Source of the DNA: an uncultured Chloroflexia bacterium
GTDB lineage: Bacteria > Chloroflexota > Limnocylindria > Limnocylindrales > CSP1-4
Direction: 5' to 3'
NCBI GenBank assembly: GCA_963838285.1
Contig: CAWIQP010000007.1
Span: forward strand, 194,193 to 258,192
Length of the DNA: 64,000 nt
Shown here: positions 1,673 through 64,000 of the stretch, piece after piece
Layout of the letters: each line of letters starts with the position of its first letter
How positions within the stretch are numbered: the stretch's first letter is position 1
The notes under the pieces: generated by a model
Database searches by the model: none
Told to the model about the DNA's origin: nothing
What the model saw: only the letters and a program-made list of their open reading frames with translations
Position numbers and translations under genes: made by a program

Positions 1673-2031
1673 GCCGGGACTGCCGGTCGGTCGCGGCAGT
1701 TCGCCTGTGTCGGTCATGATCTATCGCGGCCGGCGCAGTCTCCAGGGAGGCACGGCGAACGCCCTGCCGCCGTTTGCGAGGGCGCGGTAAACTGCCGCAG
1801 CCCGCCGAGTCGGCTCGGCTGGCCAGGAGCCCGGACGTGATCGGGCGCGTATACTGCTTCAGCTTTCCATGATCGAAACGGGTTGAGTGAGCGCCCCGCA
1901 GAACGGATTGGGGCACGACCGTCACAATCCGAGGCCTCTGAGCCACTCGATCGTCCGAGTCTTCAGGCTGGTTGTCCCGTCCCCACTCTCGGGAGAGTCA
2001 GCGCCACGACAAGAAGGAACAGCCGCGAATC

Positions 2032-3090
2032 ATGTTCGGCTTGCACACCCTGCTCGGTCTGTTCTCCCGTGACATCGGGATCGATCTGGGCACGGCCAAC
2101 ACACTAGTCTGGGTTCGCGACCGCGGCATCGTCATCAGCGAGCCGAGTGTCGTCGCCCTCGAGGCGAAGACCAGGAAGGTTCTGGCTGTCGGCGCTGAGG
2201 CAAAGCGCATGGTCGGTCGGACTCCGGCCAGCATCATCGCGGTCCGACCGCTGCGCGACGGAGTCATCAGCGACTTCGACGTGACGCAGCAGATGATCGC
2301 CTACTTCGTCCGCAAGGTTCACGACCGGATCGGCATGGTGCCCCGTCCTCGGATGCTCCTCGGCATTCCCTCGGGCGTGACAGAAGTCGAGAAGCGCGCC
2401 GTCCGAGACGCGGCCATGAACGCCGGCGCTCGCTGGGCCGGACTGATCGAGGAGCCCATGGCGGCCGCGATCGGCGCTGGGCTGCCCATCAACGAGCCCA
2501 CCGGCAGCATGATCATCGACATCGGCGGCGGCACGACCGAGGTCGCGGTCATCAGCCTCGGCGGCATCGTCGTCTCGCGGAGCATCCGCATCGGCGGCGA
2601 CGAGATGGACGCCGACATCGTCGCGTACGCCCGCCGCGAGTACAACCTGTTCCTCGGCGAGCGCACGGCCGAAGACATCAAGATCGCCATCGGATCCGCC
2701 GCCCCGGGCGAGTGGGACGCCCAGCGCGTCACCCTTCGCGGCCGCGACCTGTTGACAGGCCTGCCGCGCAGCGTCGAGGTCGGGGGCGAGCAGATCCGCG
2801 AGGCGATCGATCCATCGTTGGCGCTCATCGTTGACACGATCAAGGACACGATCGAGGAGACGCCCCCGGAGCTGGTGGCCGACATCATGGACCAGGGCAT
2901 AGTCCTGGCCGGCGGCGGCGCCCTGCTGGCGGGTTTCGATCGCCGCATCGCCGAAGCCACTCAGATGCCGGTCCACGTAGCCAACGACCCGCTGACCTGC
3001 GTCGCGCGCGGCACCGGCGTGGTCCTCGAGGAGCTGGACCTGATGGAAGAAGTGCTGGTGGCGGACACGTACGCCCGCCCGGCGCGCTGA
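2032..3090 (+). CDS. mreB: rod-shape-determining actin homologue MreB
   Basis: MFGL...DIGIDLGTANTLVW...DIGGGTTEVAVISLGGIV matches the actin/MreB phosphate-1 and phosphate-2 motifs. ATG at 2032, preceded by a purine-rich RBS. Confidence 0.9.
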   Translation: MFGLHTLLGLFSRDIGIDLGTANTLVWVRDRGIVISEPSVVALEAKTRKVLAVGAEAKRMVGRTPASIIAVRPLRDGVISDFDVTQQMIAYFVRKVHDRIGMVPRPRMLLGIPSGVTEVEKRAVRDAAMNAGARWAGLIEEPMAAAIGAGLPINEPTGSMIIDIGGGTTEVAVISLGGIVVSRSIRIGGDEMDADIVAYARREYNLFLGERTAEDIKIAIGSAAPGEWDAQRVTLRGRDLLTGLPRSVEVGGEQIREAIDPSLALIVDTIKDTIEETPPELVADIMDQGIVLAGGGALLAGFDRRIAEATQMPVHVANDPLTCVARGTGVVLEELDLMEEVLVADTYARPAR

Positions 3091-3115
3091 CTGATCGAGT
3101 GGCCGGGGCGGCCGC

Positions 3116-4330
3116 ATGAACGCGATCACGGCGACTCGGCGGACGATCCGCAGGGAGTGGACGGCCTTCGGTGCCCTGCTGATCGTCAGCGTCGGCTTGA
3201 TGGGCATGTCCGGCACGCAGACGGCCCACGACATTCAGTCGGCCGCGAACTGGGCCGTGATGCCCGTCGAAACGTTCCTCAACAGCGCGGCGGACACGGT
3301 CGGTTCGTACTGGTCCGCTCTGACCCAGATCGACCGGCTGCGAACCGAGAACGAACAGCTGAAGCTCGAGAACCAGACTCTCCAGGAAGAGTTGGAGCGC
3401 GCTCCGGCCATTGCGAAGCTGAACGACGACTGGACGAAGATCACTTCCATTGCCTCGGGCGTGCAGTACCAGACGACGCCGGTTCGAGTAATCGTCCGGG
3501 ACGTCTCGGGAGTCAATCAGCGAACCCTGATCGTCAACAAGGGCAGCAACGACGGCCTCGTCGTGGACGAGGTGGTGATCGACGCCGGGGGAGCGCTTGT
3601 CGGCCGGATTCAATCCGTCGACGCCACCGTCTCGACCATCCTTCTCATCAGCGATCCGGCATCGGTCGTGGTCGGACGGGCGTACCTCGTCGGCACCGCC
3701 TCCGCGTCCGCGTCTCCGACGGCCGCCCCGTCCGCCGCCCCCGGCTCGGCAACCGGAACGGCCACGGGCACGATCAGCGGCACGATCAGCGGCCAGCTCC
3801 AGATGTCGAACATCGACGTCACCCCGGAGCAGTGCAAGACGCTCAAGGGCAAGTACGTGGTCACAGCCGGGGAGTCCCTTCCGGGCACGAACGACACGTC
3901 GCCCTTACCCGCCGGCTCTTCTGATCGGCACGATCACCGACGTCACGTGCGATCCCAACGCGGTCGTCCAGAGCGCGGTGGTCAGCCCCGCGGCCGAACT
4001 GAACGACGCCACGTTCCTGGCCGTGATCACCGACTACCAGGGCGGCTTCGGGCCGCCCATGCCGAGCGGCTGCCCTGGCATATCCGCGAGTCCGGGCAGT
4101 TCGGCGAGCCCGCGCGGCTCGGCCAGTCCGGGGACCTCCGCCGCCCCGGGCAGCTCCTGCGCCCCCGTCGGCTCCGCGTCGTCGTCGGTCGCGCCGCACC
4201 CAAACCGTCCGAGCACTGACGGCTCCGACGCGATCCCTCGCCGCCGGGCATCCGAGTCGCGCCCGGCGCGCGCGGCCCGGCCGGCGCACGGAGGCCGGCC
4301 GGCGCTGAGCGCCAAATCGAACCTGCTAAC
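3116..4330 (+). CDS. mreC: rod-shape protein MreC, interrupted by a +1 frameshift near 3906; 3' end uncertain
   Basis: N-terminal TM, coiled coil (LRTENEQLKLENQTLQEELERA) and MreC beta-domain in frame 2 up to about 3905. The conserved C-terminus (YPPALLIGTITDV...AVVSPAAELNDATFLAVITDY) continues in frame 3. The shift maps to a C homopolymer (tcgccc). A Ser/Pro/Ala-rich tail follows. Confidence 0.7.
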
Positions 4331-6222: not shown

Positions 6223-7224
6223 ATGCGCGTCGCCCTCACGGGAGCCGGTGGACGGCTGGGCAACGCCCTGATCGCCGCGCTGACGGCAGCCCCGTTCGTC
6301 GGCGAGGTGCTCGCCTGGGACATACCCGAGCACGACCTGGACGACCCGCTGTCGGCCGAGCGGCTGGTTTCCGCGCACCGGCCCGATATCGTCATCCACG
6401 CCGCCGCATGGACCGACGTGGACGGCTGCGCGCGGGATCCGGTCCTGGCCCTGCGCCGCAACGGAACCGCGGTCGGCGAGATGGCCGAGGCCTGCGTTCG
6501 GGCGGGGGCCGGCCTCCTGATGGTGTCGACCAACGAGGTCTTCGACGGTTCGCGCACGGACGGACGGCCCTACCGGCCGGCCGACGCACCCAATCCACCG
6601 AACCCCTACGGCGCGGCGAAGCTCGCCGGCGAGCAAGCGGCTCGGGCCGCGTACGGCGCGACCGGCGACGACTTCGCCGGCGCCGCGACGGTTTCCGCGC
6701 AGGCCGGAGCCGGCGCGGTCGAGGCCGAATTCGGCGCCGCGGCCGGGGCCGGGCGGATAGGCCTGGCTATCGTCCGGACGGCCTGGCTCTTCGGCCTCCC
6801 GGGCGCCGATTTCCCGCTGAAGATCATGGCAGCAGCGGAGGCCGCGCGCGCTTCCGGCTCGACGCTGAAGCTCGTGTCGGACGAGGTGGGCTGCCCGACC
6901 TACGCCGCCGACCTCGCGGGGGCGATCGTCGGTCTCGTGCGGGAGTGGGACCGGCCCGAGGGCCGAGGCTTCGCCGGCATCCACCACGTCGTCAACGCCG
7001 GTCGAGCGTCCCGGGCGGAGTGGGCTCGCGAAGTCCTGCGCCTCGCCGGCATCGACGTGCCGACCGAGGACGTGCCGATGACCACGTGGCCGCGACCGTC
7101 GAAGCCGCCCGCCTGGGGAGTCCTGGACCCGACGCCACTCCCCAAGGGTTTGCTGCGGCCGTGGCAGGATGCGACCGCGGAGTACTTGAGGCTGGCAATT
7201 CGAAGACCGGAGGCCCAGGGATGA
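6223..7224 (+). CDS. rmlD: dTDP-4-dehydrorhamnose reductase, with an Ala/Gly-rich internal insertion
   Basis: MRVALTGAGGRLG...STNEVFDG...PYGAAKLAGE matches the RmlD pattern. A roughly 35-aa A/G-rich insert (GATGDDFAGAATVSAQAGAGAVEAEFGAAAGAG) precedes the conserved IVRTAWLFG block. Confidence 0.8.
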   Translation: MRVALTGAGGRLGNALIAALTAAPFVGEVLAWDIPEHDLDDPLSAERLVSAHRPDIVIHAAAWTDVDGCARDPVLALRRNGTAVGEMAEACVRAGAGLLMVSTNEVFDGSRTDGRPYRPADAPNPPNPYGAAKLAGEQAARAAYGATGDDFAGAATVSAQAGAGAVEAEFGAAAGAGRIGLAIVRTAWLFGLPGADFPLKIMAAAEAARASGSTLKLVSDEVGCPTYAADLAGAIVGLVREWDRPEGRGFAGIHHVVNAGRASRAEWAREVLRLAGIDVPTEDVPMTTWPRPSKPPAWGVLDPTPLPKGLLRPWQDATAEYLRLAIRRPEAQG

Positions 7225-7805
7225 GTCATGAGGTGGCCGGTTCACGGCTGCGCGGCGTGCGCTACGGGCGCCTCAACGTCCTGGCCGACAGCCGCGGCTC
7301 CTTCGTCGAGATCTGGCGGGCTTCGGCCCTGGGCGAGCTGACCGCGGAAGAGACCGGATTGCCCGGGGCGCGCTTCGTCCAGGCCAACCTCTCGACCTCC
7401 GCGCCGGGCGTGCTGCGCGGGCTGCACTACCACCGCCGCCAGCTCGACTACTGGACCGTCGTGAGCGGCCGGGCCCTGGTTGCCCTCGTCGACGTGCGCC
7501 CCGTGCTGGCCGACCCTGAGGCCCACGCCCTGGTGGAGACGCGCGAACTGGGTCAGGGCGAGAACGTAACGATACCCACGGGCGTAGCCCACGGGTTCCT
7601 CGCGCTCGCGCCGCTGCAGCTTCTGTATCTGGTCACGAACGAGTACGACGGCAGCGACGAGCTGGGATTCGCCTGGGACGACCCGGCCGTCGGCGTGCCG
7701 TGGCCCACGCTCGCGGGCACGCCCGACGGGCGGCCGATCCTGTCTGATCGGGATCGCTCGAACCCGACGCTGGCCGAACTGGTGCGGAGTCTGCGCGTCG
7801 GCTGA
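7221..7805 (+). CDS. rmlC: dTDP-4-dehydrorhamnose 3,5-epimerase
   Basis: RGSFVEIWR...GVLRGLHYH...YWTVVSGRALVALVDVR cupin motifs of RmlC. ATG at 7221 overlaps the rmlD stop. The long table ORF 6408..7805 is an alternate frame of rmlD upstream of 7221. Confidence 0.85.
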   Translation: MSHEVAGSRLRGVRYGRLNVLADSRGSFVEIWRASALGELTAEETGLPGARFVQANLSTSAPGVLRGLHYHRRQLDYWTVVSGRALVALVDVRPVLADPEAHALVETRELGQGENVTIPTGVAHGFLALAPLQLLYLVTNEYDGSDELGFAWDDPAVGVPWPTLAGTPDGRPILSDRDRSNPTLAELVRSLRVG

Positions 7806-7976
7806 GGCGCCCGCCCGAGCCCATCCGCGACCTGACCCCGAGCGGCAGCGGCGACTCGAACCGTGTCGCGCATCCGGGGCCACTACCGCAGACGGCGTCG
7901 CTCGCTGTAGGCTGGCGCCAGCATTCGTTGCCGGCCGGCCCGGGAGGGTCGACTCACCGAAACGGAGAAGGACGAC

Positions 7977-8767
7977 ATGAGCGACGAGCCGGGCAGCAAG
8001 TCACAACCAGGGTCGGCAAGCGCGTCCGGCAGGCGCGGCCGGGCCGCGGCGGCCAGGCCGGCCGCCGGGGCTGAGCCCGGCGCCACAAAGCCGGCGGCCG
8101 GCAAACCACGGCAGGAGACGACCGGACACGCCGCACCGGCGGCCAGAAAGACGACCGCCCCCAGGGCCCGCCCGCCCGTGGAGCCGGTCGACGTCAAGAC
8201 GGCGGCCGCGGCGGTTCCGGCAGCCCAGGAGGCCGCGGCGGGGGGGTGGTTCCGGCAACGCTGGCCGGCGTGGCCAGAGCCCGCGTCGAGGCGACCACGG
8301 TATCAATACACCAGGGCGGCGCCGGTGAGGTTGAGGCCGAGTCGGTCAGCGTCACGCAGGGCGGCATCGGCGCCGCCTCGGCGGAGGACATCACGGTTTC
8401 CATGGGCGGCATCGGCCGCGCCCAGGCCGACGACATCGCCGTTCGACTCGGAGGAGTCGGCATCGCTCGGGGCGAACGCGTCTCGGTCGAGCTCGGCATG
8501 ATCGGCATGGCCGTCGGTGGCGACGTGTCCCTGACCCAGGGATATGCCCGGACGGTTCTCGCTCGCGACGTTCGGATCCGCCAGGGCGGCGCGCAGACTG
8601 TCCTCGCCGGCAACGTTTCCTTCGAGGGTCGGAGCGGCGCATTCCTGGTACTTGCCCGGAGAGTCGAAGGCAACGTGCGCACCGTGCTCGACTGGCGCGG
8701 AGCGCTCGCCGCCGGCGCGGCTATGGGCATCGTCATCGGGCTGCTGGCCCGACGCCGGCACGGCTGA
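7977..8767 (+). CDS. beta-helical repeat protein (bactofilin-like), probably one gene split by a frameshift at a G7 homopolymer near 8240
   Basis: ORF 7977..8501 has a basic Ala/Pro/Lys-rich disordered N-terminus. ORF 8246..8767 in another frame has about seven 15–17-aa repeats (V.V.QGG.G.A.A.D...) and a C-terminal hydrophobic helix (AAGAAMGIVIGLLARRRHG). The two frames meet at a 'gcggggggg' run. Confidence 0.5.
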
Positions 8768-8893: not shown

Positions 8894-9556
8894 GTGATCG
8901 ACCCCACGGCGAGGGTTCACGCGTCCGCAGAGCTCGAAGCCGACGTCACGGTCGGCGCCCGAACCAGCATCTGGAATCGGGCCGTGCTCCGGACGGGAGC
9001 CAGTCTGGGATCGGAGTGCATCATCGGCCGAGACGCCTTCATCGACGAGGGTGTCCGGCTCGGCGATCGGGTCAAGGTCCAGAACGGCGCCCTCGTCTAC
9101 CACGGAGTTACGGTCGGCAACGGCGTCTTCATCGGCCCGGGCGCGATCCTGACCAACGACCGCTACCCGCGCGCGGTTACCGCGACAGGCGATCTGGCGC
9201 GCGGTGACGACTGGACCGTCAGCCCGATCGAGCTCTGCGACGGCTGCTCGATCGGCGCCGGAGCCGTCGTCGTAGCCGGAACGAGGGTCGGCCGTTTCGC
9301 GACCGTCGGGGCGGGGGCGATCGTCACCCGCGACGTGCCGGACTACGCCCTGGTGGCAGGCAATCCAGCCCGCCGCCTGGGCTGGGTGTGCGCCTGCGGA
9401 ACTCGACTGACCGGCCCGACCGGCGCCAACGCCGTCCCCAATCCCTCCCCCGACGATCCGCTCGCCTGCAAGCGATGCGGCCGCGCATTCGCCTTCAACC
9501 CCGCAGCCGGCTCGCTCGTGGAGCGGCCGGCGACGAGCACAGGAGTCTCTGCATGA
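8894..9556 (+). CDS. hexapeptide-repeat (LbH) sugar N-acetyltransferase, WbpD/PglD-like, with a C-terminal Cys4 zinc-ribbon extension
   Basis: Left-handed beta-helix hexapeptide repeats (VGARTSIW..., IGRDAFI..., VGNGVFIGPGAIL, IGAGAVVVAG, VGAGAIV). C-terminus has CACG...(x17)...CKRCG. GTG start at 8894 with a CAGGAG RBS. Confidence 0.8.
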   Translation: MIDPTARVHASAELEADVTVGARTSIWNRAVLRTGASLGSECIIGRDAFIDEGVRLGDRVKVQNGALVYHGVTVGNGVFIGPGAILTNDRYPRAVTATGDLARGDDWTVSPIELCDGCSIGAGAVVVAGTRVGRFATVGAGAIVTRDVPDYALVAGNPARRLGWVCACGTRLTGPTGANAVPNPSPDDPLACKRCGRAFAFNPAAGSLVERPATSTGVSA

Positions 9557-10659
9557 TCCCGCCCGCCCGCCCCGATCTAGGTCCCGAGGAGGTCGCCGCC
9601 GTCACGGAGGTGCTGGGCAGCGGCATGATCGCCCAGGGTCGCAAGGTCGCCGAGCTGGAGCAGCGCTGGGCCGCCTTCTGCGGCGTCAAGCACGCGATCG
9701 CCGTGTCGAACGGCACGGTGGCTCTGATGTCGATCTTCGCGGGCCTCGGCCTGGGCCCCGGCGACGAGGTCATCACCGTCTCCCACACCTTCAACGCCAC
9801 GGTTAGTTCCATTCTGTTCACGGGGGCCTCCCCGGTCTTCGTGGACATCGAGCCGGACACGTACCTGATGGACGCCGGCCGGATCGAAGCCGCCATCACG
9901 CCACGGACGAGGGCCATATGCCCCGTCAGCCTGTTCGGCATCGTCGCAGACATGGACGCCATCCAGGCCATCGCCGATCGCCACGGCCTGACGGTCGTCG
10001 AAGACGCCTGCCAGGCCCACGGCGCGCTCTATCGCGGCCGGCGAGCGGGCAGCTTCGGTACCGCCGCCTTCAGCTTGTACGCGACGAAGAACATGACCAC
10101 GGCCGAGGGCGGCTTCGTCACCACGAACGACGACCGCCTCGCCGATTGGATCCGGCTGTACATCAACCAGGGCATGAAGGTCCGGTATCACCACGAGATC
10201 CTCGGCTACAACTTCCGCATGACGGACCTCGCCGCGGCCATCGGTCTCGTCCAGCTCGACAAGCTCGAGCGGAACACGGCCCGACGCCAGGCGATCGCCA
10301 AGCGCTACGACGAAGCATTCGCCGACCTGCCGATCCAGCTCCCCACCTGGCCCGACGGCCGCACGCACGTGTACCACCAGTACACGATCGGCGTGGGACC
10401 GGCCCGCGACGCGATCGTGGCCGACATGAAGGACGCCGGCATCCTCTGCGGCATCTACTACCCGATCCCGTGCCACCGCCAGGCCTACGTCATGGAGCTC
10501 GGCATCGAGGCGGACCTGCCCAATACCGACGCGGCCGCGGCCGGCAGCATGTCGCTGCCGATGTACCCCGGCCTGACGGAGGCCGAGCAGGATCAAGTCG
10601 CAGCGGCCCTGCGGGCGTCGGTCCTGCGCCACGCGGTCGCCGCCGGCAACCGCTCGTGA
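9553..10659 (+). CDS. DegT/DnrJ/EryC1/StrS-family sugar aminotransferase (WbpE-like)
   Basis: PLP-dependent aminotransferase motifs (DEVITVSHTFNAT, VEDACQAHGA, SLYATKNMTTAEGG with the PLP lysine). ATG at 9553 follows the acetyltransferase stop. Confidence 0.85.
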   Translation: MIPPARPDLGPEEVAAVTEVLGSGMIAQGRKVAELEQRWAAFCGVKHAIAVSNGTVALMSIFAGLGLGPGDEVITVSHTFNATVSSILFTGASPVFVDIEPDTYLMDAGRIEAAITPRTRAICPVSLFGIVADMDAIQAIADRHGLTVVEDACQAHGALYRGRRAGSFGTAAFSLYATKNMTTAEGGFVTTNDDRLADWIRLYINQGMKVRYHHEILGYNFRMTDLAAAIGLVQLDKLERNTARRQAIAKRYDEAFADLPIQLPTWPDGRTHVYHQYTIGVGPARDAIVADMKDAGILCGIYYPIPCHRQAYVMELGIEADLPNTDAAAAGSMSLPMYPGLTEAEQDQVAAALRASVLRHAVAAGNRS

Positions 10660-11681
10660 CCGCGCCCGTGCGGCTCGGCCTGGCCGGGCTGGGCTCGATG
10701 GGCCGGAACCACCTCCGCGTCATCTCCAACCACCCCGAAACGACGCTCGTAGCGATCGCGGACCCCGATCCGGCTGCTCTCGAGGCCGCGGTCTCGCAGA
10801 CCGGGGCGAAGGGCTTCGCCGATCCCCTGGCCATGATCGCGGGGGCCGAGATCGACGGCGTGGTGCTGGCCGCGCCGACCACGGCCCATGTCGCCCTCGC
10901 TCTCGCCGCCATCGAACGCGGCCTGGGAGTGCTCGTCGAGAAGCCGCTGGCGGCCACCGTCGACGACGGGCTAGTCATCGTGGCCGCCGCCCGCAAGCGG
11001 AACGTCCGCGTTCAGGTGGGGCACGTGGAGCGGTACAACCCCGCCGTGATGGAGATGGGGCGCCTGCTGCGAGCCGGCTGGCTGTCCACGATCTACGCCA
11101 TCACCAGCCGCCGAGCCGGTCCCTTCCCGGCTCGCATCCGCGACGTCGGCGTGACCGTGGACCTGGGCACTCACGACGTGGACATGCTGTGCTGGATCGC
11201 CGGCGAGCGGCCCGTCCGCGTCTACGCCGAGACGGCCCAGAGGCTCCATGCCAGCCACGAGGACCTGACCTTCGGACTGATGCACTTCCCGTCCGGCGCC
11301 ACGGGGTTCCTCGACGTCGACTGGCTCACGCCCGCGAAGCGACGCAGCCTCGTTGCCGTCGGCGAGGAAGGCATGTTCGAGCTCGACTACCTCACTCAGA
11401 AGCTGACCTTCACCCGCTCCAACGTCGAGCGGCCGCAGATGATCGGCGGCTACGCCACGACCTTCACCGGCGACGTGGCGGAAATTCCGGTCCAGAACGT
11501 GGAGCCGCTTCGAGCCGAGCTCGACGAATTCGTACGCGTTCTGCGAACCGGAGACCGGCCGTACGTGGACGGCGAGGACGGCCTGTGGGCCGTCGCCATC
11601 GCCAACGCGCTGCTGACCGCCGCCGCCGAGGGCCGTCCCGTCGACCTGTCCGACCTTCCATCGAGGCTAGCAGCCGAATGA
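10656..11681 (+). CDS. Gfo/Idh/MocA-family NAD-dependent sugar oxidoreductase (WbpB-like)
   Basis: N-terminal Rossmann fold (RLGLAGLGSMGRNHL) and the C-terminal domain of the Gfo/Idh/MocA family. GTG at 10656 overlaps the previous stop. Confidence 0.8.
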   Translation: MTAPVRLGLAGLGSMGRNHLRVISNHPETTLVAIADPDPAALEAAVSQTGAKGFADPLAMIAGAEIDGVVLAAPTTAHVALALAAIERGLGVLVEKPLAATVDDGLVIVAAARKRNVRVQVGHVERYNPAVMEMGRLLRAGWLSTIYAITSRRAGPFPARIRDVGVTVDLGTHDVDMLCWIAGERPVRVYAETAQRLHASHEDLTFGLMHFPSGATGFLDVDWLTPAKRRSLVAVGEEGMFELDYLTQKLTFTRSNVERPQMIGGYATTFTGDVAEIPVQNVEPLRAELDEFVRVLRTGDRPYVDGEDGLWAVAIANALLTAAAEGRPVDLSDLPSRLAAE

Positions 11682-28951: not shown

Positions 28952-29026
28952 CGGGGTGTGGCCTAGCGGCAAGGCACGTGCTTTGGGAGCACGAGATCGT
29001 GGGTTCGAATCCCACCGCCCCGACCA
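28952..29026 (+). tRNA. tRNA-Pro (anticodon TGG)
   Basis: Hand-folded cloverleaf: acceptor CGGGGTG/CGCCCCG, D arm GCCT-AGCGGCA-AGGC, anticodon stem CGTGC/GCACG with loop TTTGGGA (UGG), T arm GTGGG-TTCGAAT-CCCAC, encoded CCA. Antisense table ORFs show the tRNA 'GFEPT' signature. Confidence 0.85.
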
Positions 29027-44400: not shown

Positions 44401-44488
44401 GCGCGATCATCGCGCAACGGCGCCGAAACGGCACAGGGCGCGGGCCGGCGGCCCAGCGCGGCGCCCCGGGCGGCCTTTCGGGCCGCTA

Positions 44489-46443
<1,955 letters not shown>

Positions 46444-46524
46444 CGGCATTGTTTATCCATTACTTAACCAGTTTTAAATAAGGTTTTTCTTTAGATATTT
46501 CTGGGGCGTTTTTTTTACGGAGGA

Positions 46525-46773
46525 TTATTTTTTAATAATTTTTTCGTTTAAAATAGCATTTTTAGTTCGTACGGCGTTTATTATCGAAAAGATAATGACT
46601 GCTTTTTCCCACTCGGCAGAGCCGGAAAATTGCTCCACCTTTTTTTTGTATTTGTCCCACAAAGAGGTGAGGGAAGCTTCATCAATATGCAATATGATTT
46701 CGGCGATTTTGTTAAGCGAATTTTCTAAACTATTCATATAACAATTAATAACTTTACTTGGCAATAAAGTCAA
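46525..46773 (-). CDS. hypothetical small protein
   Basis: 82-aa ORF in AT-rich DNA; no recognisable family. Confidence 0.25.
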   Translation of the reverse strand: MTLLPSKVINCYMNSLENSLNKIAEIILHIDEASLTSLWDKYKKKVEQFSGSAEWEKAVIIFSIINAVRTKNAILNEKIIKK

Positions 46774-46937
46774 ATTAAAAGCTTTTTCCCCTTTAAGAAT
46801 ATTCGATTCTAAAGGAAAAATATCGTTCGTAACAGCCTTCTTACCTCATGCCCGGGTAATGGTATTTATTTACCGGCGAATTCATGGAAATAAAACTTGT
46901 TTTTTTGTCTTTTATCGCTAATAATTAAAAACGGTCA

Positions 46938-47435
46938 TTGGTTATGGAAGACAAAAAGATAAAAATTGGCGTCATTTCAGACACTCATCTGGAAGATTAT
47001 GATGATAAGATGAAAAAATGCATTGCTGAGCATTTCAGCGATGTTGATATGATTCTTCATGCCGGAGACTTGGTTGATGTTCGTGTTTTAGAGATTTTCG
47101 GGGAAAAGGAAATTAAGGTGATATGCGGTAACATGGACAATTCATCAGTTAAAGAACAGTTCCCCGATCATTTACTTTTTGAAATAAAGGGGTTTAAATT
47201 CCTCCTGATTCATGGATGGGGATCTCCTCAGGGTATTGAAGAAAGAATATCAGAGATGTTTAAAGATGTGGATTGTATTGTTTATGGACATACGCATAAA
47301 CCGGCAAATCATACAAAAGAAAACGTACTGTTCTTTAATCCCGGTTCGGCGGTGGACAGATGTTTTGCCTCTTCTAAAACCATAGGCATATTAGAAATTG
47401 ACAAAAATATAACAGGTAGGATAATAAAAATATAA
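46938..47435 (+). CDS. YfcE/MJ0936-family metallophosphoesterase
   Basis: IGVISDTHLED...ILHAGDLVD...GNMD...LIHGWG...VYGHTHKP are the calcineurin-like phosphoesterase motifs. Confidence 0.8.
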   Translation: MVMEDKKIKIGVISDTHLEDYDDKMKKCIAEHFSDVDMILHAGDLVDVRVLEIFGEKEIKVICGNMDNSSVKEQFPDHLLFEIKGFKFLLIHGWGSPQGIEERISEMFKDVDCIVYGHTHKPANHTKENVLFFNPGSAVDRCFASSKTIGILEIDKNITGRIIKI

Positions 47436-47502
47436 TTAGTGGAGCAACTTTCGGCAGGAGCCGGGGGATTCAAGTTGCGGGATAAAAAGGCTGGTTTTAA
47501 AT

Positions 47503-47988
47503 ATGGAAACAATTTTTGCGCCATGGCGCATGGACTATATTAAAGGGGAAAAACCTGACGGATGTGTTTTTTGCAAATGTTCCATCAGATGTGATGATTA
47601 TATTATATTTGAAGGTAAAACCGCCTACGTAATGATGAACAGATACCCTTATGTCAACGGTCATTTAATGATAATACCTCAGAGGCAGTACGGAAACATC
47701 GAAGAGTTGACTCAGGAAGAAAGAAAAGAAATATTTGATCTTCTGGAAATATCAGTCAAGGCTATGAAGGAAGCGATGAATCCTGATGGATTCAATATAG
47801 GTGTCAATATTGGCAAAGCCGCGGGCGCCGGTATTGAAGAACATTTTCATGTCCATGTAATTCCGCGCTGGGAAGGTGATACTAATTTCATGAGTGTTGT
47901 GACAAATGTCCGGGTTATTCCGGAGGCTGTGGCTACAACCGCGGCTAATCTTGCGCCTCTTTTTAAAAAATATCAAAAGGGGGAATAA
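47503..47988 (+). CDS. HIT-family hydrolase
   Basis: Histidine-triad motif HFHVHVIPR and the zinc-binding CVFC region. Confidence 0.85.
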   Translation: METIFAPWRMDYIKGEKPDGCVFCKCSIRCDDYIIFEGKTAYVMMNRYPYVNGHLMIIPQRQYGNIEELTQEERKEIFDLLEISVKAMKEAMNPDGFNIGVNIGKAAGAGIEEHFHVHVIPRWEGDTNFMSVVTNVRVIPEAVATTAANLAPLFKKYQKGE

Positions 47989-47992
47989 TGTA

Positions 47993-48316
47993 ATGAGAAT
48001 AATTTATTTAATTCTTGTTATAATTTTTTCTTTATTTATCGTTACTTTTTCTCAGCAAAATTTAACGACAATACAGTTGCATTATAATATTCTGGACCAT
48101 AATCTTTTGGGTAATTTAAAGTCCGTACCAACTTATTTGCTAATTTTTATATCCATTCTGATTGGAGTGATCATTACAGGTTTCTGGGGTATAGTAGAAC
48201 GCTTTCGTTTGAATCGCACAATCAGACGTTTGAACAAACTAGTTCGTGATTTGCGCAAGGAACTTCACGCCAATGAAGCGCCGCCAATAATCGATGAACA
48301 AAAAATACCCAAATAA
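47993..48316 (+). CDS. LapA-like (DUF1049) small inner-membrane protein
   Basis: Two TM helices (IIYLILVIIFSLFIVTF; YLLIFISILIGVIITGFWGIV) and a basic C-terminal coiled coil. GGGGGA RBS before the ATG at 47993. Confidence 0.45.
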   Translation: MRIIYLILVIIFSLFIVTFSQQNLTTIQLHYNILDHNLLGNLKSVPTYLLIFISILIGVIITGFWGIVERFRLNRTIRRLNKLVRDLRKELHANEAPPIIDEQKIPK

Positions 48317-48811
48317 TATCGACCCTTCCTTATTTGAAGATTTCAGATTTATTACCGACGCATCTTTAGGAAGGTTGGCTAAGTGGCTTCGGCTTTTAGG
48401 TTACGATACGGTTGTGTTTCCTGAAGAAGCCGGCAGGGCTTTGTTGCGACTTGCTGCCGCGGAAGACAGAATAGTTCTTACCAGAAGAAAAGATATGACT
48501 GAGCGCCAATTTTCAGGCGGCTCTGTTTATAATTACGGATATTGATGTCGGTAATCAGCTCAATAAAGTTATTGATAAAGTATTCTTTGAAGATAGACAG
48601 GCAAAAGATGTTTGGAATTTGTCTTGAGTGCAACCGGAAACTAAATCCTGTCAACAGGGAAGATGTTCGTGATTTAGTGCCGTTGTTTGTTTTTGAAAAT
48701 TGCACTGAATATAATCGATGCCCCCGTTGTCTTAAAATTTACTGGACGGGAACACATCAGCGCAACGCTTTAAGGTTTATGGAGAAGCACATTCCGAATC
48801 ATCTCCCTTGA
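48294..48811 (+). pseudogene. Mut7-C RNase-domain (PIN-like + zinc-ribbon) protein, split by a frameshift near 48545
   Basis: N-terminal ORF has RFITDASLGRLAKWLRLLGYDTV (Mut7-C signature). The next frame has CLECNRKL...CPRCLKIYWTGTHQRN (the C-terminal zinc ribbon). Confidence 0.55.
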
Positions 48812-48902
48812 TTTTTTCAACAGCATGTTTCAGCGCCGTTAAAATTACAGCAAGATTTTCTTTTGCGCCCCTGGGGCTTCCGGGAAGATTAATCAAAAAA
48901 AA

Positions 48903-48938
48903 TCCATAAATTCCCGCTGCGGTGCGGGAATTTATGGA
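48903..48938. terminator. bidirectional rho-independent terminator between the convergent Mut7-C and EF-G genes (perfect 15-bp stem TCCATAAATTCCCGC/GCGGGAATTTATGGA, loop TGCGGT)
   Basis: Hairpin flanked by an A8 run on the plus strand (a U-run for the minus-strand EF-G transcript). Confidence 0.6.
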
Positions 48939-48950
48939 TTGTGGATCATT

Positions 48951-51029
48951 TTATTCTTCTTCTTTTTTCGATTCGGCGATAATTTTCTCAGCGATATAGG
49001 CGGGAACTTCCTCATAATGAGATTCGGTATAGGTAAAGTTGCCGCGACCGCTCGTCATCGAACGTAAATCAGGCGCGTATTTGAGGATTTCCGCCAGAGG
49101 AACCTGTCCTTTAATAACCTGATTGGTGCCGTTGGTATCCATTCCCTGAACCCGTCCGCGACGGCTGTTGAGATCGCCGATCACATCTCCCATGTATTCG
49201 TCGGGTACTTCAATGTCAATATTGACAATCGGTTCCAGTAGAATCGGTTGACATTCCATCACGCCTTTTTGAAAGGCCATCGATCCGGCAATTTTAAAAG
49301 CCATTTCTGACGAATCCACCGTGTGGTAAGATCCAAACGTAAGATTTATTCTGAAATCCACCACAGGGTAACCGGCGATCACGCCTTTTGCTGCTGCTTC
49401 CACAATGCCTTTTTCGACAGCCGGACGGTATTGGCCGGGAATAACGCCGCCGACTATTTTATCCTTAAACTCAAAACCGCCGCCGCGCGGCAACGGCTCG
49501 ATATCTATCCAGCAATCACCAAACTGACCGCGACCGCCGGATTGCTTCTTGTATTTGCCTTGGACGTTGGTTTTTCCTTTGATGGTTTCCAGATAGGGAA
49601 CTTTCGGCGTATTCAGATTGACTTCCACGCCGAATTTCCTTTTCATCTTTTCGATATTAACTTCAATATGAACCTGGCCCATACCGGAAAGAATCATTTC
49701 CTTGGTCTGAACATTGCGCGAAAAAACAATCGTCGGGTCCTCTTCCGTCAGGCGGTGAATTGAAGATGCAATCTTGTCTTCATCACCGCGGGTTTTCGGT
49801 TCGATGGCAAAAGACATGATAGGATGAGGTATTTCCACCTTGTCAAAAATGACCGGCGCTTTTTCAAAGCAAAGCGTATCGCCTGTCACAGTATCCTTGA
49901 GCTTGGCCACACCCGCAATATCTCCGGGGATAAGGCCTTCCGCCTGTTTCTGTGTTTTTCCTTCGAGAAAAAAGATATGACCGAATTTTTCAGTGATTTT
50001 TTTGGTCGAATTATACACGGATGAATCGGGGTTGAGTTTGCCGGAATAAACGCGGAATAAAGTCAGCCTTCCGGCGTACGGATCGGCGATAGTTTTGAAG
50101 ACAATCGCTGAAAAAGGAGCGTCTTCGGACGGCTGCCGTTCTTCAATATCTTCTGTTCCCGGTTTTTTGCCTATTTTTGCTCCGCGATCGACAGGCGACG
50201 CGAAGGCATTGACAATTAAGTCCATCAGCATCGATATTCCAATGCCTTTAATCGCCGAACCGCACATGACAGGAATAAGGCTTCCCGAGGAAATGCCTTT
50301 TTTCAAACCAGCTTTTAGTTCATCTGCCGAGAGTTCACCGGCTTCGAGATATTTATTCATCAGCTCGTCATCGGCTTCAGCAATGTCCTCCACCATCGAT
50401 CCGCGCAAATTATTTACTTCTTCCTTCATATCCGCAGGTATATCTATAACTTTCCCCGCGCCTTTATTATCGGCGAATAAATAAGCTTTCATTTCGATTA
50501 AATCAACAATGCCGTTGAATTTATCTTCAGAGCCGATAGGCAGGCAAACCGGAGTTGCTTTTTTCTTTAATTTGGTATTGATGCTTTCCATCGCTGATTT
50601 AAAAATCGCGCGTTCTTTATCCATTCTGTTGATAAAAATGATGCGGGGCAGTTTGAATTCGTCGGCTAATTCCCAGACTTTTTGGGTTTGAAATTCAACA
50701 CCGCCGACAGCGTCAACTACGATAACGGCGTTTTCAACAACGCTCATTGAGCATTTTGTATCGAAGGTAAAATTAGAATCTCCCGGCGTGTCAATAAAGT
50801 TAATTTTATGTTTTTCCCACTCGACAAAATTTGCCGCCGAGCTAATGGATATACGTTTTTTTTGCTCTTCGGGTTCAAAATCCATACAGGATGTCGCGTC
50901 ATCAACTCTTCCTAATCGTTCGCTTTTTCCTGAAACAAATAAAAAAGATTCACAAAGGGATGTTTTACCCGTTCCGCCGTGTCCGGCTACCGCTAAATTT
51001 CTTAGAGATTTTGATTCGTATTTTGCCAT
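48951..51029 (-). CDS. elongation factor G paralogue (EF-G2-like translational GTPase)
   Basis: GTPase G1–G4 motifs (AGHGGTGKTS, DTPG, NRMD), EF-G domains II–V. A divergent P-loop (GHGGTGKT instead of AHIDAGKT) is typical of EF-G2 paralogues. Confidence 0.9.
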   Translation of the reverse strand: MAKYESKSLRNLAVAGHGGTGKTSLCESFLFVSGKSERLGRVDDATSCMDFEPEEQKKRISISSAANFVEWEKHKINFIDTPGDSNFTFDTKCSMSVVENAVIVVDAVGGVEFQTQKVWELADEFKLPRIIFINRMDKERAIFKSAMESINTKLKKKATPVCLPIGSEDKFNGIVDLIEMKAYLFADNKGAGKVIDIPADMKEEVNNLRGSMVEDIAEADDELMNKYLEAGELSADELKAGLKKGISSGSLIPVMCGSAIKGIGISMLMDLIVNAFASPVDRGAKIGKKPGTEDIEERQPSEDAPFSAIVFKTIADPYAGRLTLFRVYSGKLNPDSSVYNSTKKITEKFGHIFFLEGKTQKQAEGLIPGDIAGVAKLKDTVTGDTLCFEKAPVIFDKVEIPHPIMSFAIEPKTRGDEDKIASSIHRLTEEDPTIVFSRNVQTKEMILSGMGQVHIEVNIEKMKRKFGVEVNLNTPKVPYLETIKGKTNVQGKYKKQSGGRGQFGDCWIDIEPLPRGGGFEFKDKIVGGVIPGQYRPAVEKGIVEAAAKGVIAGYPVVDFRINLTFGSYHTVDSSEMAFKIAGSMAFQKGVMECQPILLEPIVNIDIEVPDEYMGDVIGDLNSRRGRVQGMDTNGTNQVIKGQVPLAEILKYAPDLRSMTSGRGNFTYTESHYEEVPAYIAEKIIAESKKEEE

Positions 51030-51362
51030 GAAAACTCCTTTCAATGCCTCTGTGCTGTTCTATAGAGCCGATGGATTTAAATGCAGGCTTTTAACGTATC
51101 CGGCAAGTTAAATCAAGACAAATTTAAACATGATATTTCCGGATCATTGCCGAAAAAAGCAGGGAATGAGTTGAATATTACAATGAAAATGACAGTTTTT
51201 ATAACAGGAATTATTTTATTAAATTTGAACATTCCGCCATCGCGTTTCTTAAAATAAAATTATTCACCGATTCCGGCTTGTATATATGAGTATTTTACTT
51301 TATAAACGCTCATCATTTGCAGGTATAAAAAATAGAAAATATTATTTTGGTATAATGTATAG

Positions 51363-53290
51363 ATGATTGATTATGAAAAAGAGCTTAATTCCGAACAATA
51401 TCGAGTTGTAATGGAAGAGGGCGGTCCGCTCCTGGTACTTGCCGGAGCGGGAAGCGGCAAAACCCGCACATTGACATACAGGGTTGCCCGTCTTCTGGAG
51501 AGTGGTGTTTCCCCCGAAAGCATATTGCTGGCGACATTTACCAACAAAGCCGCAAATTCCATGCTCAATCGCGTGGAGAGCCTTATCAATTCCTACACCG
51601 GCAGAATTATGGGCGGCACATTTCATCATATCGCTCACCGGCTGTTGAGAAGCAATGCGTATCTTCTCGGTTATAAAAGCAACTTTTCTATTGTTGACAG
51701 TGAAGATTCCCGCCAGCTTATTTCCACATGCCTGGCCGAACTTAAAATTGATACCAAAAAAAGTAAATTCCCCAAGAGCAATATTCTTGCCGAAATCATC
51801 GGATTGGCAATGAATACCCAAAACACACTACAAGATATTGTTGAATCAAAATATCCCTACTTCCTTCATCTGATTGAGGAAATTACCCAGGTAGCAATTC
51901 TGTATATTCAAAAGAAGAAAGATCTCTCCATAATGGACTTTGATGACCTGTTGTACAATTGCCGCTCACTTCTTCTTGATCATCCTGATGTCTTAAAAAA
52001 CATTGCGGGAAGATTTAAGTATGTGCTGGTGGATGAATATCAGGATACGAATATTATTCAAGCGGATATCGTCGATTTGCTGGCTTCATGCCATCGGAAT
52101 TTGATGGTGGTCGGAGATGATTCGCAAAGCATTTATTCATTTCGTGGCGCGAATTTCAGCAATATAATCAATTTTCCCGATCGTTATCCGGACTGTAAAA
52201 TATTCAAACTGGAAACGAACTATCGCAGTACGCCGGAAATACTGCATCTGGCGAATTTGAGTATAAACGAATAATGAAAAACAGTTCCCTAAAGAATTAA
52301 GAGCAGTGCGCTCAAATGGCATGCGGCCGGTTATGGTTTCCGCCGCAAAACGTTGTGAAACAGGCGGATTTTGTGACGCAGAGGATTACGGAATTGGTTC
52401 GTTGCGGTGATCCGCTGAAAGAAATAGCCATTCTTTACCGCGCGCATTATCATTCCATGGAAATGCAGATGGAATTTGTCCGGCGCGATATTCCCTTTGA
52501 TATCCGTTCCGGCATCCGTTTTTTTGAGCAGGCGCATATTAAAGATGTGACTTCCTATATGCGGTTATAGTCAATCCCGGCGATGAACTGGCCTGGCAGC
52601 GATTGCTGTTGATGTATCCGAAAGTGGGAAAGGTGACATTCAATAAAATTTGGAAATATTTATCAAAGCAGCAAAATCCTCTGGAGGCGATTTTTGACAA
52701 AGGAATTCATGCAGATTGTGCCCAAGCAGGGACAACCGCGGGATAGCGGAATTCCGTAAAACAATCCAATTACTTTTAGAGATGCCCGCGGTGACCGTAT
52801 GCCGGAAAAAATAATAGATGTTTTATTAAATAGAGGCAATTATCGCGTTTATTTACAGGATAATTATTCCGACACCTCCTCACGTGAAGAAGACCTGATT
52901 CAGTTGGGAAATTTTTCCGCCCAGTTTTTGCAAATGGAAGATTTCTTAAATGAGTTGGCTTTGCTCACTAATATGGCCAAGGAAGAGGGCGCAGGGGAAG
53001 AAAATGATGAGGACAAGGTGGCTTTGAGCACAATCCATCAGGCCAAAGGGCTGGAATGGTCTTATGTTTTCTTAATCTGGTGCGCGGACGGCATGATTCC
53101 GTTGCAGCGGGCGTTGAAAGAAGAAGGTGGCGAAGAAGAGGAAAGAAGACTCTTTTATGTGGCGGTGACCGAGCCAAGGATCAACTCTACCTGTGTTATC
53201 CTGCCTTGGATTATACACGCTCTTCCGGCGCTTTAAGTTGTCCCCTCGCGGTTTATCAGAGAAATAACGCCGCTTTCCGAATATGATGAG
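51363..53290 (+). pseudogene. UvrD/Rep/PcrA-family DNA helicase, broken into at least four frames
   Basis: 51363..52274 carries helicase motifs I–III (AGAGSGKT, ATFTNKAA, VLVDEYQDTN, GDDSQSIYSFRGA). Later motifs (TNYRS; ILYRAHYHS; TIHQAKGLEWSYVFL) are in other frames. Confidence 0.7.
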
Positions 53291-53682
53291 GAGCGGCCGT
53301 TTGAGCAATGGGCCATTTATGATGATTATTGATACCTGGTCGCATTCTTCGGTTAACTTTGTTGGCATCGTCGTCGGCTTCCGTGGGCGTATGTTCATAT
53401 ACGCCTCGTAGCCTCCTCCTTGCCGCCTCGTTATCCTTTGAATGCAATCAGGTATAAATGAATCATTCTAAATCTATATTATTAATTTGACATGATTAAT
53501 CAAGGAATAAGCAGCAACCATGTTTTATAAAAGGCGTTGCAGTTTGCCGCAAATAAGAGTAAAAATTATACACTATTGTATGCGCATTTCATAAATAGCA
53601 TTAAATCCGGTTACTAAAAAGATAACTGTTCGGGCGTCTTGTTTTTATCTGTTTTGTACTCAAATTTTTAAAGGATGATTAT

Positions 53683-54507: not shown

Positions 54508-54660
54508 AAAAATGCCCGGGCTGTTCTGGGATAATGCAACTCATATGAAACAATTTGGAAGAAGCAGATCGAAACTGAATATTTTTGCACAAGCAGTATG
54601 ATTGCTCCAGCCCAAAGGAAGAAAGCACTGTTAAAGAATCAACGGCAGTATCCCTTGTCT

Positions 54661-56480: not shown

Positions 56481-56711
56481 ATCCGGTTTTTAATTTCCTT
56501 TAATCACGCAAGTCAAACCTTTCACAAAACAGACGCCAAAAGTTCTTTTTTCTGTATCATGATGTTAAAGGAAATAAAAGCACATCAAGAGGGGAAGCTA
56601 AATAAACATTTTACACTATTGAATAATAAAATTTCATTAGTGAAAGCAATTCAATACCTGCATCCTTGTCGTAAGACTCACTTGATTCTTTAGGATTAAA
56701 TAAAGAATCTA

Positions 56712-57830: not shown

Positions 57831-57831
57831 G

Positions 57832-61949: not shown

Positions 61950-64000
<2,051 letters not shown>

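Follow-up and report, generated by a model that had tools for sequence, protein, structure and literature searches.

The window analysed here, a stretch of 64,000 nt from an uncultured bacterium of the Chloroflexota, carries a row of genes recognized by Pfam, mreB-mreC-rmlA-rmlB-rmlD-rmlC, which starts at position 1972 and ends with rmlC. Downstream of rmlC lie two open reading frames, ORF1 and ORF2, each of about 174 aa, followed by genes for WbpD-, WbpE- and WbpB-like enzymes (Table 1). The location that an initial annotation had assigned to the pair, between the mreB/mreC/rmlABDC genes and a glycan cluster, agrees with the Pfam assignments, and the two overlapping frames and the string gcggggggg that it had placed at 8238-8246 can be read directly in the sequence, the latter containing a homopolymer of seven Gs (G7). 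No promoter or terminator was detected between 7700 and 9000 when this interval was scanned, and Rfam reports only two tRNAs in the whole window.

Table 1. Coordinates of the split gene, its encoded features and its neighbours in the window
Feature	Position	Strand	Remarks
rmlC (dTDP-4-dehydrorhamnose 3,5-epimerase)	7221..7805	+	Upstream neighbour; Pfam
Shine-Dalgarno-like GGAGAAGGA	7964..7972	+	4 nt 5' of ATG 7977; read from the sequence
ORF1	7977-8501	+	Frame 0; ATG start
Gene, 5' part (frame 0)	7977..8245	+	Residues 1-90; disordered Ala/Pro/Gly/Arg-rich N-terminal tail starting MSDEPGSKS
Basic motif TAPRAR	8154..8171	+	Residues 60-65; resembles K-V-[TV]-R-[AP]-[RK] of many relatives' tails
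AGGAGG in tail-coding region	8227..8232	+	13 nt 5' of GTG 8246, 7 nt 5' of the G heptamer; read from the sequence
G7 homopolymer, site of frame change	8240..8246	+	One G more (or two fewer) restores a single ORF
ORF2	8246-8767	+	Frame 2; GTG start on the final G of G7; stop codon 8765-8767
Gene, 3' part (frame 2, ORF2)	8246..8767	+	Residues 91-263 and stop
Beta-solenoid core (predicted)	8285..8668	+	Residues 104-231; about eight full 15-residue coils and a partial one, two strands per coil
LDWRG motif	8687..8701	+	Residues 238-242; most conserved stretch of the family, opens the C-terminal helix
C-terminal hydrophobic helix and basic end RRRHG	8693..8764	+	AlphaFold helix 240-261; predicted tail anchor
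Hexapeptide acetyltransferase, WbpD-like	8894-9556	+	Downstream; Pfam
DegT-family aminotransferase, WbpE-like	9553-10659	+	Downstream; Pfam
GFO/IDH/MocA oxidoreductase, WbpB-like	10656-11681	+	Downstream; Pfam

The region 7977-8767 is one gene for a protein of 263 aa, as the initial annotation had proposed, and its division into ORF1 and ORF2 is a one-base homopolymer indel, because tail and core share a common open frame in 80 of 86 related loci. In these 80 loci the frame could be traced from an in-frame start through a tail region of 44-141 aa into the core; five of the other six are ended by the end of the contig, and one (L077) lacks an in-frame start upstream of the core. Most of the relatives' tails start M[SNTA][DE].., and N-termini such as MSDEPESKS, MSEEPGSKS and MDEEPGSKS are like that of the window copy. 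By tblastn the frame changes between 8240 and 8252: residues 1-86 of the relatives align to 7977-8240 in frame 0, and the cores align from about 8252 onwards in frame 2, the core encoded by ORF2 being 70-82% identical to theirs. The GC content by codon position also passes from a frame 0 to a frame 2 pattern at G7: the 5' part has a GC3 of 0.85, frame 2 beyond the run has GC1/2/3 values of 0.76/0.55/0.81, and frame 0 there shows an off-frame pattern. With a single G added to the run, the 263 aa product contains QEAAAGGVVPATLAG. That two genes without any relationship overlap here by chance, a reading for which one could cite the length of both open frames, is refuted by the single frame of the relatives, and past G7 the frame of ORF1 yields an off-frame product rich in Arg, Pro and Ser, whose GC pattern by codon position is wrong; we give it practically no credence.

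An error of sequencing or assembly is the most probable source of the indel, in which case the run would in truth be G8. G7 is the only G/C run of seven or more in positions 1-46000 of the window (its 45.6 kb high-GC part), and the runs of orthologues are usually of 4-5, reaching 7 in only two of the 86, elsewhere in the gene. Exact DNA searches across the run in metagenome contigs gave no matches and found no DNA of the same species, and no record exists of a protein identical to ORF2. The less likely source is a real and recent mutation by replication slippage in the G-run, which would leave a pseudogene, or else only a tail-less product of 173 aa that could be started at GTG 8246 behind the AGGAGG, as far as the sequence can be read. 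The sequence as given does carry G7, ORF2 alone retains the entire solenoid and its anchor, and L077 likewise is without an in-frame start upstream of its core; however, apart from the break both halves of the gene are undamaged, their codon bias is normal and they contain no further stops, and the break falls exactly at the sole long homopolymer of the high-GC part, the classic place for an error in length calling. The window moreover joins stretches that are unrelated to one another and contains several truncated genes, which makes the quality of the assembly doubtful. We therefore consider a genuine lesion possible but clearly the weaker account.

A recoding or switching site is a further alternative, either by programmed -1 ribosomal frameshifting or by phase variation through slipped-strand mispairing. 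The run does constitute a slippery heptamer of the X XXY YYZ form (dnaX type), G GGG GGG at 8240-8246, in the appropriate phase (G8240 is the third codon position of frame 0), such that a -1 slip would yield a family-type fusion ...AAGGVVPATL, and the AGGAGG lies a short distance upstream. Against this, the stability of the downstream RNA does not exceed that of shuffled sequences (z = 0.44), giving no sign of a stimulator structure, and the shift site is not conserved among the 86 relatives, 80 of which encode tail and core in one open frame with no G-run kept at the site. Heptamers of G alone are not known to be efficient slippery sites, and we regard recoding as very improbable.

The restored protein is predicted by AlphaFold to have the layout that had been anticipated for it, a disordered N-terminal tail, then a repeat core and then a C-terminal hydrophobic helix. 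The core is predicted to be a beta-solenoid with 15-residue, two-stranded coils and the coil consensus [VI]-x-[VI]-x-Q-G-G-[IA]-G-x-A-x-A-x-D. Its pLDDT is 92-98 over residues 104-231, with strands interrupted every 15 residues at x-G and x-D, and the trimmed core has a mean pLDDT of 91.7 and a pTM of 0.78, although AlphaFold confidence may be inflated on repeat proteins. The repeat is also evident in the protein sequence, where BLOSUM autocorrelation at a lag of 15 gives z = 10.8 with 36% identity and harmonics at 30, 45 and 60. Thus the tandem repeat described in the initial annotation is real, but its count and period of seven units of 15-17 residues have to be revised to about eight full units and a partial one, with a period of exactly 15 and one unit of 16 residues. 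A search for tandem repeats at the DNA level did not see a 45 nt period, so that the repeats must be old, and the length of the core is constant at 134 aa over the family.

The same annotation had taken the core to be bactofilin-like, and this assignment fails. None of 106 family members matches PF04519 (IPR007607) even at E <= 1, the window protein has no match to it at E <= 10, and hhalign of the family profile against Caulobacter crescentus BacA and the Thermus thermophilus bactofilin, whose sequences were recovered from PDB alignments, gives a probability of 0.5% and an E value of 0.12. In Foldseek searches BacA (2n3d) ranks 39th and 41st, with E values of 1.9-2.6, TM scores of 0.25-0.30 and an rmsd of about 10 A. 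The protein is thus not a bactofilin, in spite of general likenesses in its small size, a beta-solenoid core of about 110-135 aa with a disordered flank, a membrane association and a cell-shape and cell-wall context. Bactofilins form a triangular right-handed beta-helix of about 110 aa and attach to membranes by an amphipathic targeting peptide at the N-terminus or, in rare cases, by a transmembrane helix there (PMC12448750), whereas here the predicted solenoid is of 134 aa with two strands per 15-residue coil, the N-terminus is hydrophilic and acidic (MSDEPGSKS) and the sole hydrophobic helix is C-terminal.

The core might still polymerize in the manner of bactofilins, whose non-polar filaments form independently of nucleotides, and as filaments bound to the membrane it would then direct the synthesis of the cell wall, with the C-terminal transmembrane helix taking the place of the N-terminal peptide. 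The flanked solenoid, the predicted membrane association and the mreB/mreC and cell-wall neighbourhood would suit such a polymer, and transmembrane helices are used by some 3% of the true bactofilins as well (PMC12448750). The absence of homology and the differing coil geometry (TM score 0.30 and E 2.6 against BacA) argue otherwise, as does the spacing of the helix, which follows the last coil by only about 8 residues, so that the C-terminal end of the solenoid would face the membrane and end-to-end assembly would be disfavoured. A filament of this type therefore seems improbable.

Comparison with other solenoids gave only distant likenesses. The best geometric superposition is with the C-terminal beta-helix of tapirins (PDB 6n2b / 6n2c), at a TM score of 0.54 normalized to the trimmed query, an rmsd of 5.9 A and a Foldseek probability of 0.84, but with 7% sequence identity and an E value of 0.5; tapirins are large adhesins for cellulose that are secreted and carry extra loops, and the resemblance is a generic solenoid likeness. 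The ice-binding protein of Lolium perenne (PDB 3ult), an example of the two-sided beta-rolls with coils of 14-15 residues, shares a coil length of about 15 residues, two flat sheets and small core residues; it ranks 8th in Foldseek, not significantly (E 0.6, TM 0.17-0.30, rmsd 8.9 A), has no sequence similarity and is a secreted plant protein of unrelated biology. The 'toast-rack' proteins of the DUF4097, DUF2807 and LiaF-C families, single-stranded beta-helix proteins associated with the envelope and with envelope-stress systems, likewise combine a transmembrane helix with a beta-helical repeat domain, and a link to the cell envelope is probably common to both. Their anchors are, however, usually N-terminal, none of the 106 members has a Pfam match to these families, and PDB 3jx8, presumably a DUF2807 structure, is a weak Foldseek match (E about 2, TM 0.2). 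A solenoid of 15-residue coils fused directly to a glycine-zipper tail anchor has no detectable counterpart among solved structures.

The C-terminal hydrophobic helix noted at the outset is present in the AlphaFold model, where residues 240-261 of 263 contain 17 hydrophobic or small residues and then RRRHG. Across 106 sequences D239, R241 and A243 are invariant and L238, W240 and G242 are kept in 90% or more; the family as a whole shows the pattern LDWRGALA.GAA.G...GL.RRR, in which G247, G251 and G255 form a glycine zipper, GxxxGxxxG. No relative has a hydrophobic N-terminus, and neither a signal peptide nor a Tat motif is conserved, the N-termini being hydrophilic and acidic (MSEEPG.., MADP..). 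Since a signal peptide is absent and the only hydrophobic helix lies at the extreme C-terminus, within the last 30 or so residues, computation places the protein in the class of C-tail-anchored membrane proteins, and we infer that it is one of them.

The closest parallel to this anchor is in Escherichia coli ElaB, YqjD and YgaM (DUF883), which also lack a signal peptide and whose only hydrophobic helix comes last in the chain, bearing W-x-G and a GxxxGxxxG zipper and closing with RR; ElaB, whose annotation is that of a tail-anchored protein of the inner membrane, has the ending KPWQGIGVGAAVGLVLGLLLARR, compared with LDWRGALAAGAAMGIVIGLLARRRHG in the window protein. In these proteins the glycine-rich tail-anchor helices mediate dimerization (bioRxiv 10.1101/2024.08.16.608256; PMC6389858). 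As in ElaB and YqjD, a functional N-terminal region would be kept off the membrane by a stalk, which is alpha-helical there and a beta-solenoid here. The likeness is limited to about 23 residues of the anchor and may be convergent: Pfam scans of the window protein and the 106 members found no DUF883 match, and ElaB-type proteins bind ribosomes, of which there is no hint in this family.

By this arrangement the glycine-zipper helix would lie in the membrane with only 3-5 basic residues behind it, and the solenoid would stand on the cytoplasmic face, holding the flexible tail about 4 nm from the membrane; the zipper would probably drive lateral self-association. The positive-inside rule mildly favours the reverse topology, in which the basic C-terminus would be within the cell and the N-terminal domain exposed. 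In an extracytoplasmic protein of this kind the helix would be anchored with its basic end inside, and the solenoid and the Ala/Pro/Thr/Ser-rich tail would reside in the wall, the tail perhaps as a substrate or binder of the glycan made by the neighbours. The RRR after the helix fits this orientation, the tail composition (A 20%, P 13%, T 9%, S 8%) is like that of wall-spanning or glycosylated linkers, the gene lies within a glycan cluster, and the succession of conserved motif, helix and basic end recalls C-terminal sorting signals. It is countered by the hydrophilic, acidic N-termini, devoid of a conserved signal peptide or Tat motif, by the emergence of a C-terminal helix from the ribosome only after termination, which leaves no known export route for the roughly 240 preceding residues, and by the ElaB-type anchors, which have an equal terminal RR and belong to proteins with cytoplasmic domains. 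We consider an outward-facing solenoid quite improbable and retain the cytoplasmic orientation.

The tail, with a pLDDT of about 50, is disordered as had been supposed, and in the window copy it is also basic, with a net charge of +8; as a family feature the basic character is rejected, since net charge has a median of 0 and exceeds it in only 45 of 106 tails. The expected length of 90 aa and the richness in Ala and Pro hold (about 90-103 aa; A 31, P 13), whereas the presumed richness in Lys does not, there being only 5 Lys, with G 11 and R 10 instead. Tail charge is not conserved, and the conservation of tail motifs is limited to subclades. A loose regular expression for the K-V-[TV]-R-[AP]-[RK]-type motif finds it in 46 of 106 tails, with KVTRAR and KVVRPR recurring, a sequence pattern that is suggestive only.

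The family is an unnamed and large one, almost confined to the class Limnocylindria of the Chloroflexota. A word-indexed search gave 132 matches at E <= 1e-3, mostly of 210-265 aa; among representatives at 50% identity there are 1136 at E <= 1e-3 and 609 at E <= 1e-10, and members occur in 194 species genomes, almost all of them Limnocylindria or Chloroflexota. Pfam, NCBIfam and PDB sequence searches gave no match for the family, and a sequence-profile search of the PDB gave none at E <= 10. An NCBIfam match to GspN is sub-threshold, at 18 bits against a cut-off of 50, and is noise. A homologue search seeded with a low-GC relative (P0251) recovered that protein alone.

The cell-shape and cell-wall neighbourhood recurs when synteny with mreB and rml is followed in the relatives. 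Family genes are always found within clusters for cell-wall glycopolymers, close to mreBC and rml, and in most cases WbpD/E/B/A/I-like genes come directly after them. Along the loci, mreB-mreC-rmlABD(C) is followed by a variable block (GH18, GT2, GT4, divergent DUF3048), the family gene, and then the Wbp-like genes with GT4; the acetyltransferase gene is immediately 3' in 66 of 83 loci, and the downstream order is that of the window, continued by UDP-sugar dehydrogenase, 2-epimerase and GT4 genes. The Wbp-like genes are missing beside some relatives; a more distant one has a cluster of TagF-like, TarIJ-like and ABC-transporter genes next to it, with mreBC adjoining, and in one low-GC relative the gene instead overlaps that of a dynamin-like GTPase.

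Because the gene heads or adjoins cell-wall glycopolymer operons near mreB and mreC, we infer that the protein may be a membrane scaffold or organizer for the otherwise soluble nucleotide-sugar enzymes and the glycosyltransferases of envelope glycan synthesis. It is this gene neighbourhood that points to the function, while topology and oligomerization are suggested by the features of the anchor. Taken as a whole, we think it likely that the locus is one gene with a changed G7 length, most probably in error, whose product is a C-tail-anchored solenoid on the cytoplasmic side acting as a scaffold for envelope glycan synthesis. A bolder proposal, which we hold to be unlikely, is that of a lineage-specific cytoskeleton-like scaffold, in which the tail-anchored solenoid would self-assemble on the cytoplasmic side of the membrane by means of its zipper helix, its solenoid faces or both, and the short motifs of the flexible tail would recruit cell-wall glycopolymer synthesis and arrange it spatially beside the MreB/MreC machinery. 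If this were true, a functional analogue of bactofilins would have arisen independently in the Limnocylindria.

For annotation, the gene should be called as a single ORF, the split reflecting not biology but either an artefact of the homopolymer or damage of very recent date, and the label 'bactofilin' should not spread. The Limnocylindria, uncultured members of the Chloroflexota, abound in soils, peat and lakes, and their cell envelope is essentially unstudied; a strictly conserved, un-annotated membrane protein that heads wall-glycan operons beside mreBC offers a handle on how that envelope is built and organized.

Two overlapping frames meeting at a run of G residues had been described in the initial annotation, and the composition of the sequence bears this out, since the frame switch in codon-position GC falls at the G7 homopolymer (coordinates are given in the table). 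Third-position GC is highest in the frame of the 5' part (ORF1) upstream of the run; downstream of it the frame of the 3' part (ORF2) has a coding signature (GC1/2/3 of 0.76/0.55/0.81), and the ORF1 frame is an off-frame translation rich in Arg, Pro and Ser. Addition of one G gives a 263-aa product containing ...AAQEAAAGGVVPATLAGVARARVEATTV....

A search of 5.8 billion proteins at a cut-off of E <= 1e-3 recovered 132 relatives, all unnamed and, among the 120 matches listed, mostly 210-265 aa long. No relative has a Pfam domain of its own, the sole domain being that of the neighbouring DegT aminotransferase in the frameshift chimera P0040. Their N-termini resemble that of the window copy (MSDEPESKS.., MSEEPGSKS.., MDEEPGSKS..), the disordered tails that follow are variable and of low complexity, and the repeat cores and C-termini are 60-80% identical to ORF2. 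In tblastn comparisons, residues 1-86 of the relatives align to 7977-8240 in one frame, and their cores align in the other from about 8252. The core frame is open upstream, across the tail region, up to an in-frame start in 80 of 86 related loci; a contig end cuts five of the others, and the sixth (L077) has no in-frame start. From these comparisons, the fused form is the family norm, to which the window copy is the exception. The proposal of one gene split at the G-run, as opposed to two unrelated ORFs, thus stands, and we hold the gene model and architecture with high confidence.

Across the 45.6 kb of high-GC sequence in the window, no G/C homopolymer other than this G7 reaches 7, and only five runs reach 6; the longest G/C runs in orthologues are usually 4-5, and a 7-run is present in only 2/86, elsewhere in the gene. 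Both gene halves are otherwise intact. Such a break is typical of a wrong homopolymer length or of very recent slippage, and not of a conserved site of recoding. Programmed frameshifting and phase variation are alternatives, the heptamer G GGG GGG being in phase for a -1 slip that would yield exactly the fused protein, but RNA downstream of it folds no better than shuffled sequences (z = 0.44) and the site is not conserved among relatives, and we consider these alternatives highly improbable. The split is an ordinary homopolymer indel, most likely an artefact. An exact look-up of the ORF2 protein found no match on record, and the exact DNA pattern across the run had 0 matches in metagenome contigs. 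The metagenomic database 'proteins' P0040 (373 aa) and P0248 (383 aa) are chimeras, joined by a frameshift to the DegT aminotransferase or hexapeptide acetyltransferase encoded downstream, which suggests that assemblies of this GC-rich locus often contain indel errors.

Within 200 bp at about 45,600 (junction 45,580-45,640), the window passes from a GC content of about 0.70 to one of about 0.39, and the low-GC part (45,600-64,000) carries housekeeping genes of another organism (EF-G, ABC-2 transporters, an HlyD-like protein). A LigA adenylation-domain fragment ends at the junction, only the N-terminal half of UvrD and a C-terminal fragment of an SdhA-like protein are present, and a 531-aa ORF reads straight across. 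The window therefore resembles a join of two unrelated sequences; the junction looks like bin concatenation or a chimeric contig and not a genomic island, and with several genes truncated, assembly quality is a live concern. Of two tRNA-Pro genes, the one with anticodon CGG lies about 1 kb ahead of the junction.

In the window copy the tail takes up about the first 103 residues (A 31, P 13, G 11, R 10; net charge +8) and has an AlphaFold pLDDT of about 50. Family tails are 44-141 aa long (median 69), enriched in Ala, Pro, Thr and Ser, and have a median net charge of 0, so that the basic character noted originally holds for the window copy and is a subclade trait, not a family one. A K-V-[TV]-R-[AP]-[RK]-like motif occurs in about 40% of family tails (TAPRAR in the window). 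The core (residues 104-237) is 134 aa throughout the family, with strong similarity at lag 15 (z = 10.8; harmonics at 30, 45 and 60) and the repeat consensus [VI]-x-[VI]-x-Q-G-G-[IA]-G-x-A-x-A-x-D. As anticipated, AlphaFold predicts a beta-solenoid for it, with pLDDT 92-98 (106 sequences); the trimmed core has a mean pLDDT of 91.7 and pTM of 0.78 (37 sequences). Strand breaks in these models recur at x-G with a spacing of 15 residues, and the middle coils have a second break at x-D (6 + 2 + 5 + 2 residues); the core so modelled is a flat solenoid of two sheets with Val/Ile opposite Ala/Gly inside. Conservation in the family is highest in LDWRGA (D239, R241 and A243 invariant), which leads into a predicted C-terminal helix (240-261) with a GxxxGxxxG zipper and the end RRRHG; the family pattern is LDWRGALA.GAA.G...GL.RRR.

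Three features define bactofilins (PMC12448750): a right-handed triangular helix of about 110 aa, membrane targeting by an N-terminal peptide, and polymerisation; the protein described here is predicted to have neither that helix nor that peptide. Pfam gave no significant match for the window protein and no bactofilin domain in any of 106 members, even at E <= 1, NCBIfam gave only a sub-threshold match to GspN, and a PDB sequence-profile search returned 0 matches at E <= 10. Aligned with BacA (2n3d) and the T. thermophilus bactofilin (6ria), both recovered from PDB alignments, the family profile had an hhalign probability of 0.5%. Foldseek found nothing in the PDB below E = 0.1 with either model; BacA ranked 39 and 41 (TM 0.25-0.30, rmsd about 10 A), and the best superposition was the tapirin beta-helix (TM 0.54, 7% identity). 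With Pfam, hhalign and Foldseek all against it, we reject the bactofilin-like assignment; the label is wrong.

Relatives are encoded in 194 genomes (pattern scan, one genome per species), nearly all labelled Limnocylindria, Limnocylindrales or Chloroflexota, the few with other labels being probably mis-binned; when 1.84 billion representatives were searched exhaustively with an HMM, 1136 clusters were found at E <= 1e-3. Synteny with mreB and rml genes is kept in close relatives, where, as in the window, the gene is preceded by radC, mreB, mreC, rmlA, rmlB, rmlD and either rmlC or a gene for a 662-aa unknown protein. It is followed by genes for a hexapeptide acetyltransferase (immediately 3' in 66/83 loci), DegT aminotransferase, GFO/IDH/MocA oxidoreductase, UDP-sugar dehydrogenase, 2-epimerase and GT4, a set that we take to be WbpA/B/E/D/I, making UDP-2,3-diacetamido-2,3-dideoxy-mannuronic acid. 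More distant relatives have an upstream block of GH18, GT2 and GT4 with a divergently transcribed DUF3048 gene, and the partner cluster at locus L089 comprises TagF-like and TarIJ-like genes, a pyruvyl transferase and an ABC transporter, with mreB/mreC again adjoining. What these settings have in common is the synthesis of cell-wall glycopolymers, with varying sugar chemistry. In the window (1972-4219) rmlA directly follows mreB and mreC, with no recognisable mreD between, as also in L001 and L089.

The DUF3048 gene of the more distant relatives (about 420-560 aa) stands head-to-head with the family gene, and the two products may work together. In L085, L090 and L091 the corresponding genes (about 390-410 aa) are unannotated in that position; the window subclade has no DUF3048 neighbour, rmlC or the 662-aa protein being in its place. 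On a 4.9 kb contig the gene of P0251, a low-GC orphan relative, overlaps the end of a dynamin-like GTPase gene by 23 nt, a single case that points to coupled translation with a membrane-remodelling protein.

Coordinates of features in the window and in related loci (L0xx)
Feature	Location	Strand	Remarks
G7 homopolymer	8240-8246	+	within gcggggggg at 8238-8246; read from sequence
ORF1	7977-8501	+	ATG start; GGAGAAGGA upstream at 7964-7972
ORF2	8246-8767	+	-1 frame relative to ORF1; first possible start, GTG, begins on last G of run
531-aa ORF	44486-46081	-	crosses GC junction
tRNA-Pro	44543-44619		anticodon CGG
tRNA-Pro	28952-29026		anticodon TGG
DUF3048 gene	L084 8098-9792	-	
DUF3048 gene	L086 8551-9810	-	
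DUF3048 gene	L089 6631-7890	-	
Dynamin-like GTPase gene	L088 1835-3589		584 aa
P0251 gene	L088 3567-4172		201 aa; same repeat-plus-anchor architecture

The protein is laid out like a C-tail-anchored one, with no signal peptide and a sole hydrophobic helix within the last 26 residues. The E. coli protein ElaB, whose annotation is tail-anchored, ends KPWQGIGVGAAVGLVLGLLLARR and has W-x-G, a glycine zipper and terminal RR in common with it; in the ElaB family dimerisation is driven by the glycine-rich helix and the N-terminus carries function (PMC6389858). By analogy, the solenoid would be a stalk standing on the membrane at its cytoplasmic side, roughly 4 nm high from about nine coils of about 0.48 nm, presenting the flexible tail with its short motifs, and the glycine zipper may mediate self-association. 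We favour this cytoplasmic, tail-anchored topology with moderate confidence only, because the positive-inside rule argues the opposite way. The gene context leads us to propose, as a tentative best guess, a scaffold that would organise soluble nucleotide-sugar enzymes and glycosyltransferases at the membrane. The family is real, un-annotated and widely conserved, with a distinctive combination of fold and anchor in an understudied lineage, and, while not a major surprise, it merits modest follow-up.
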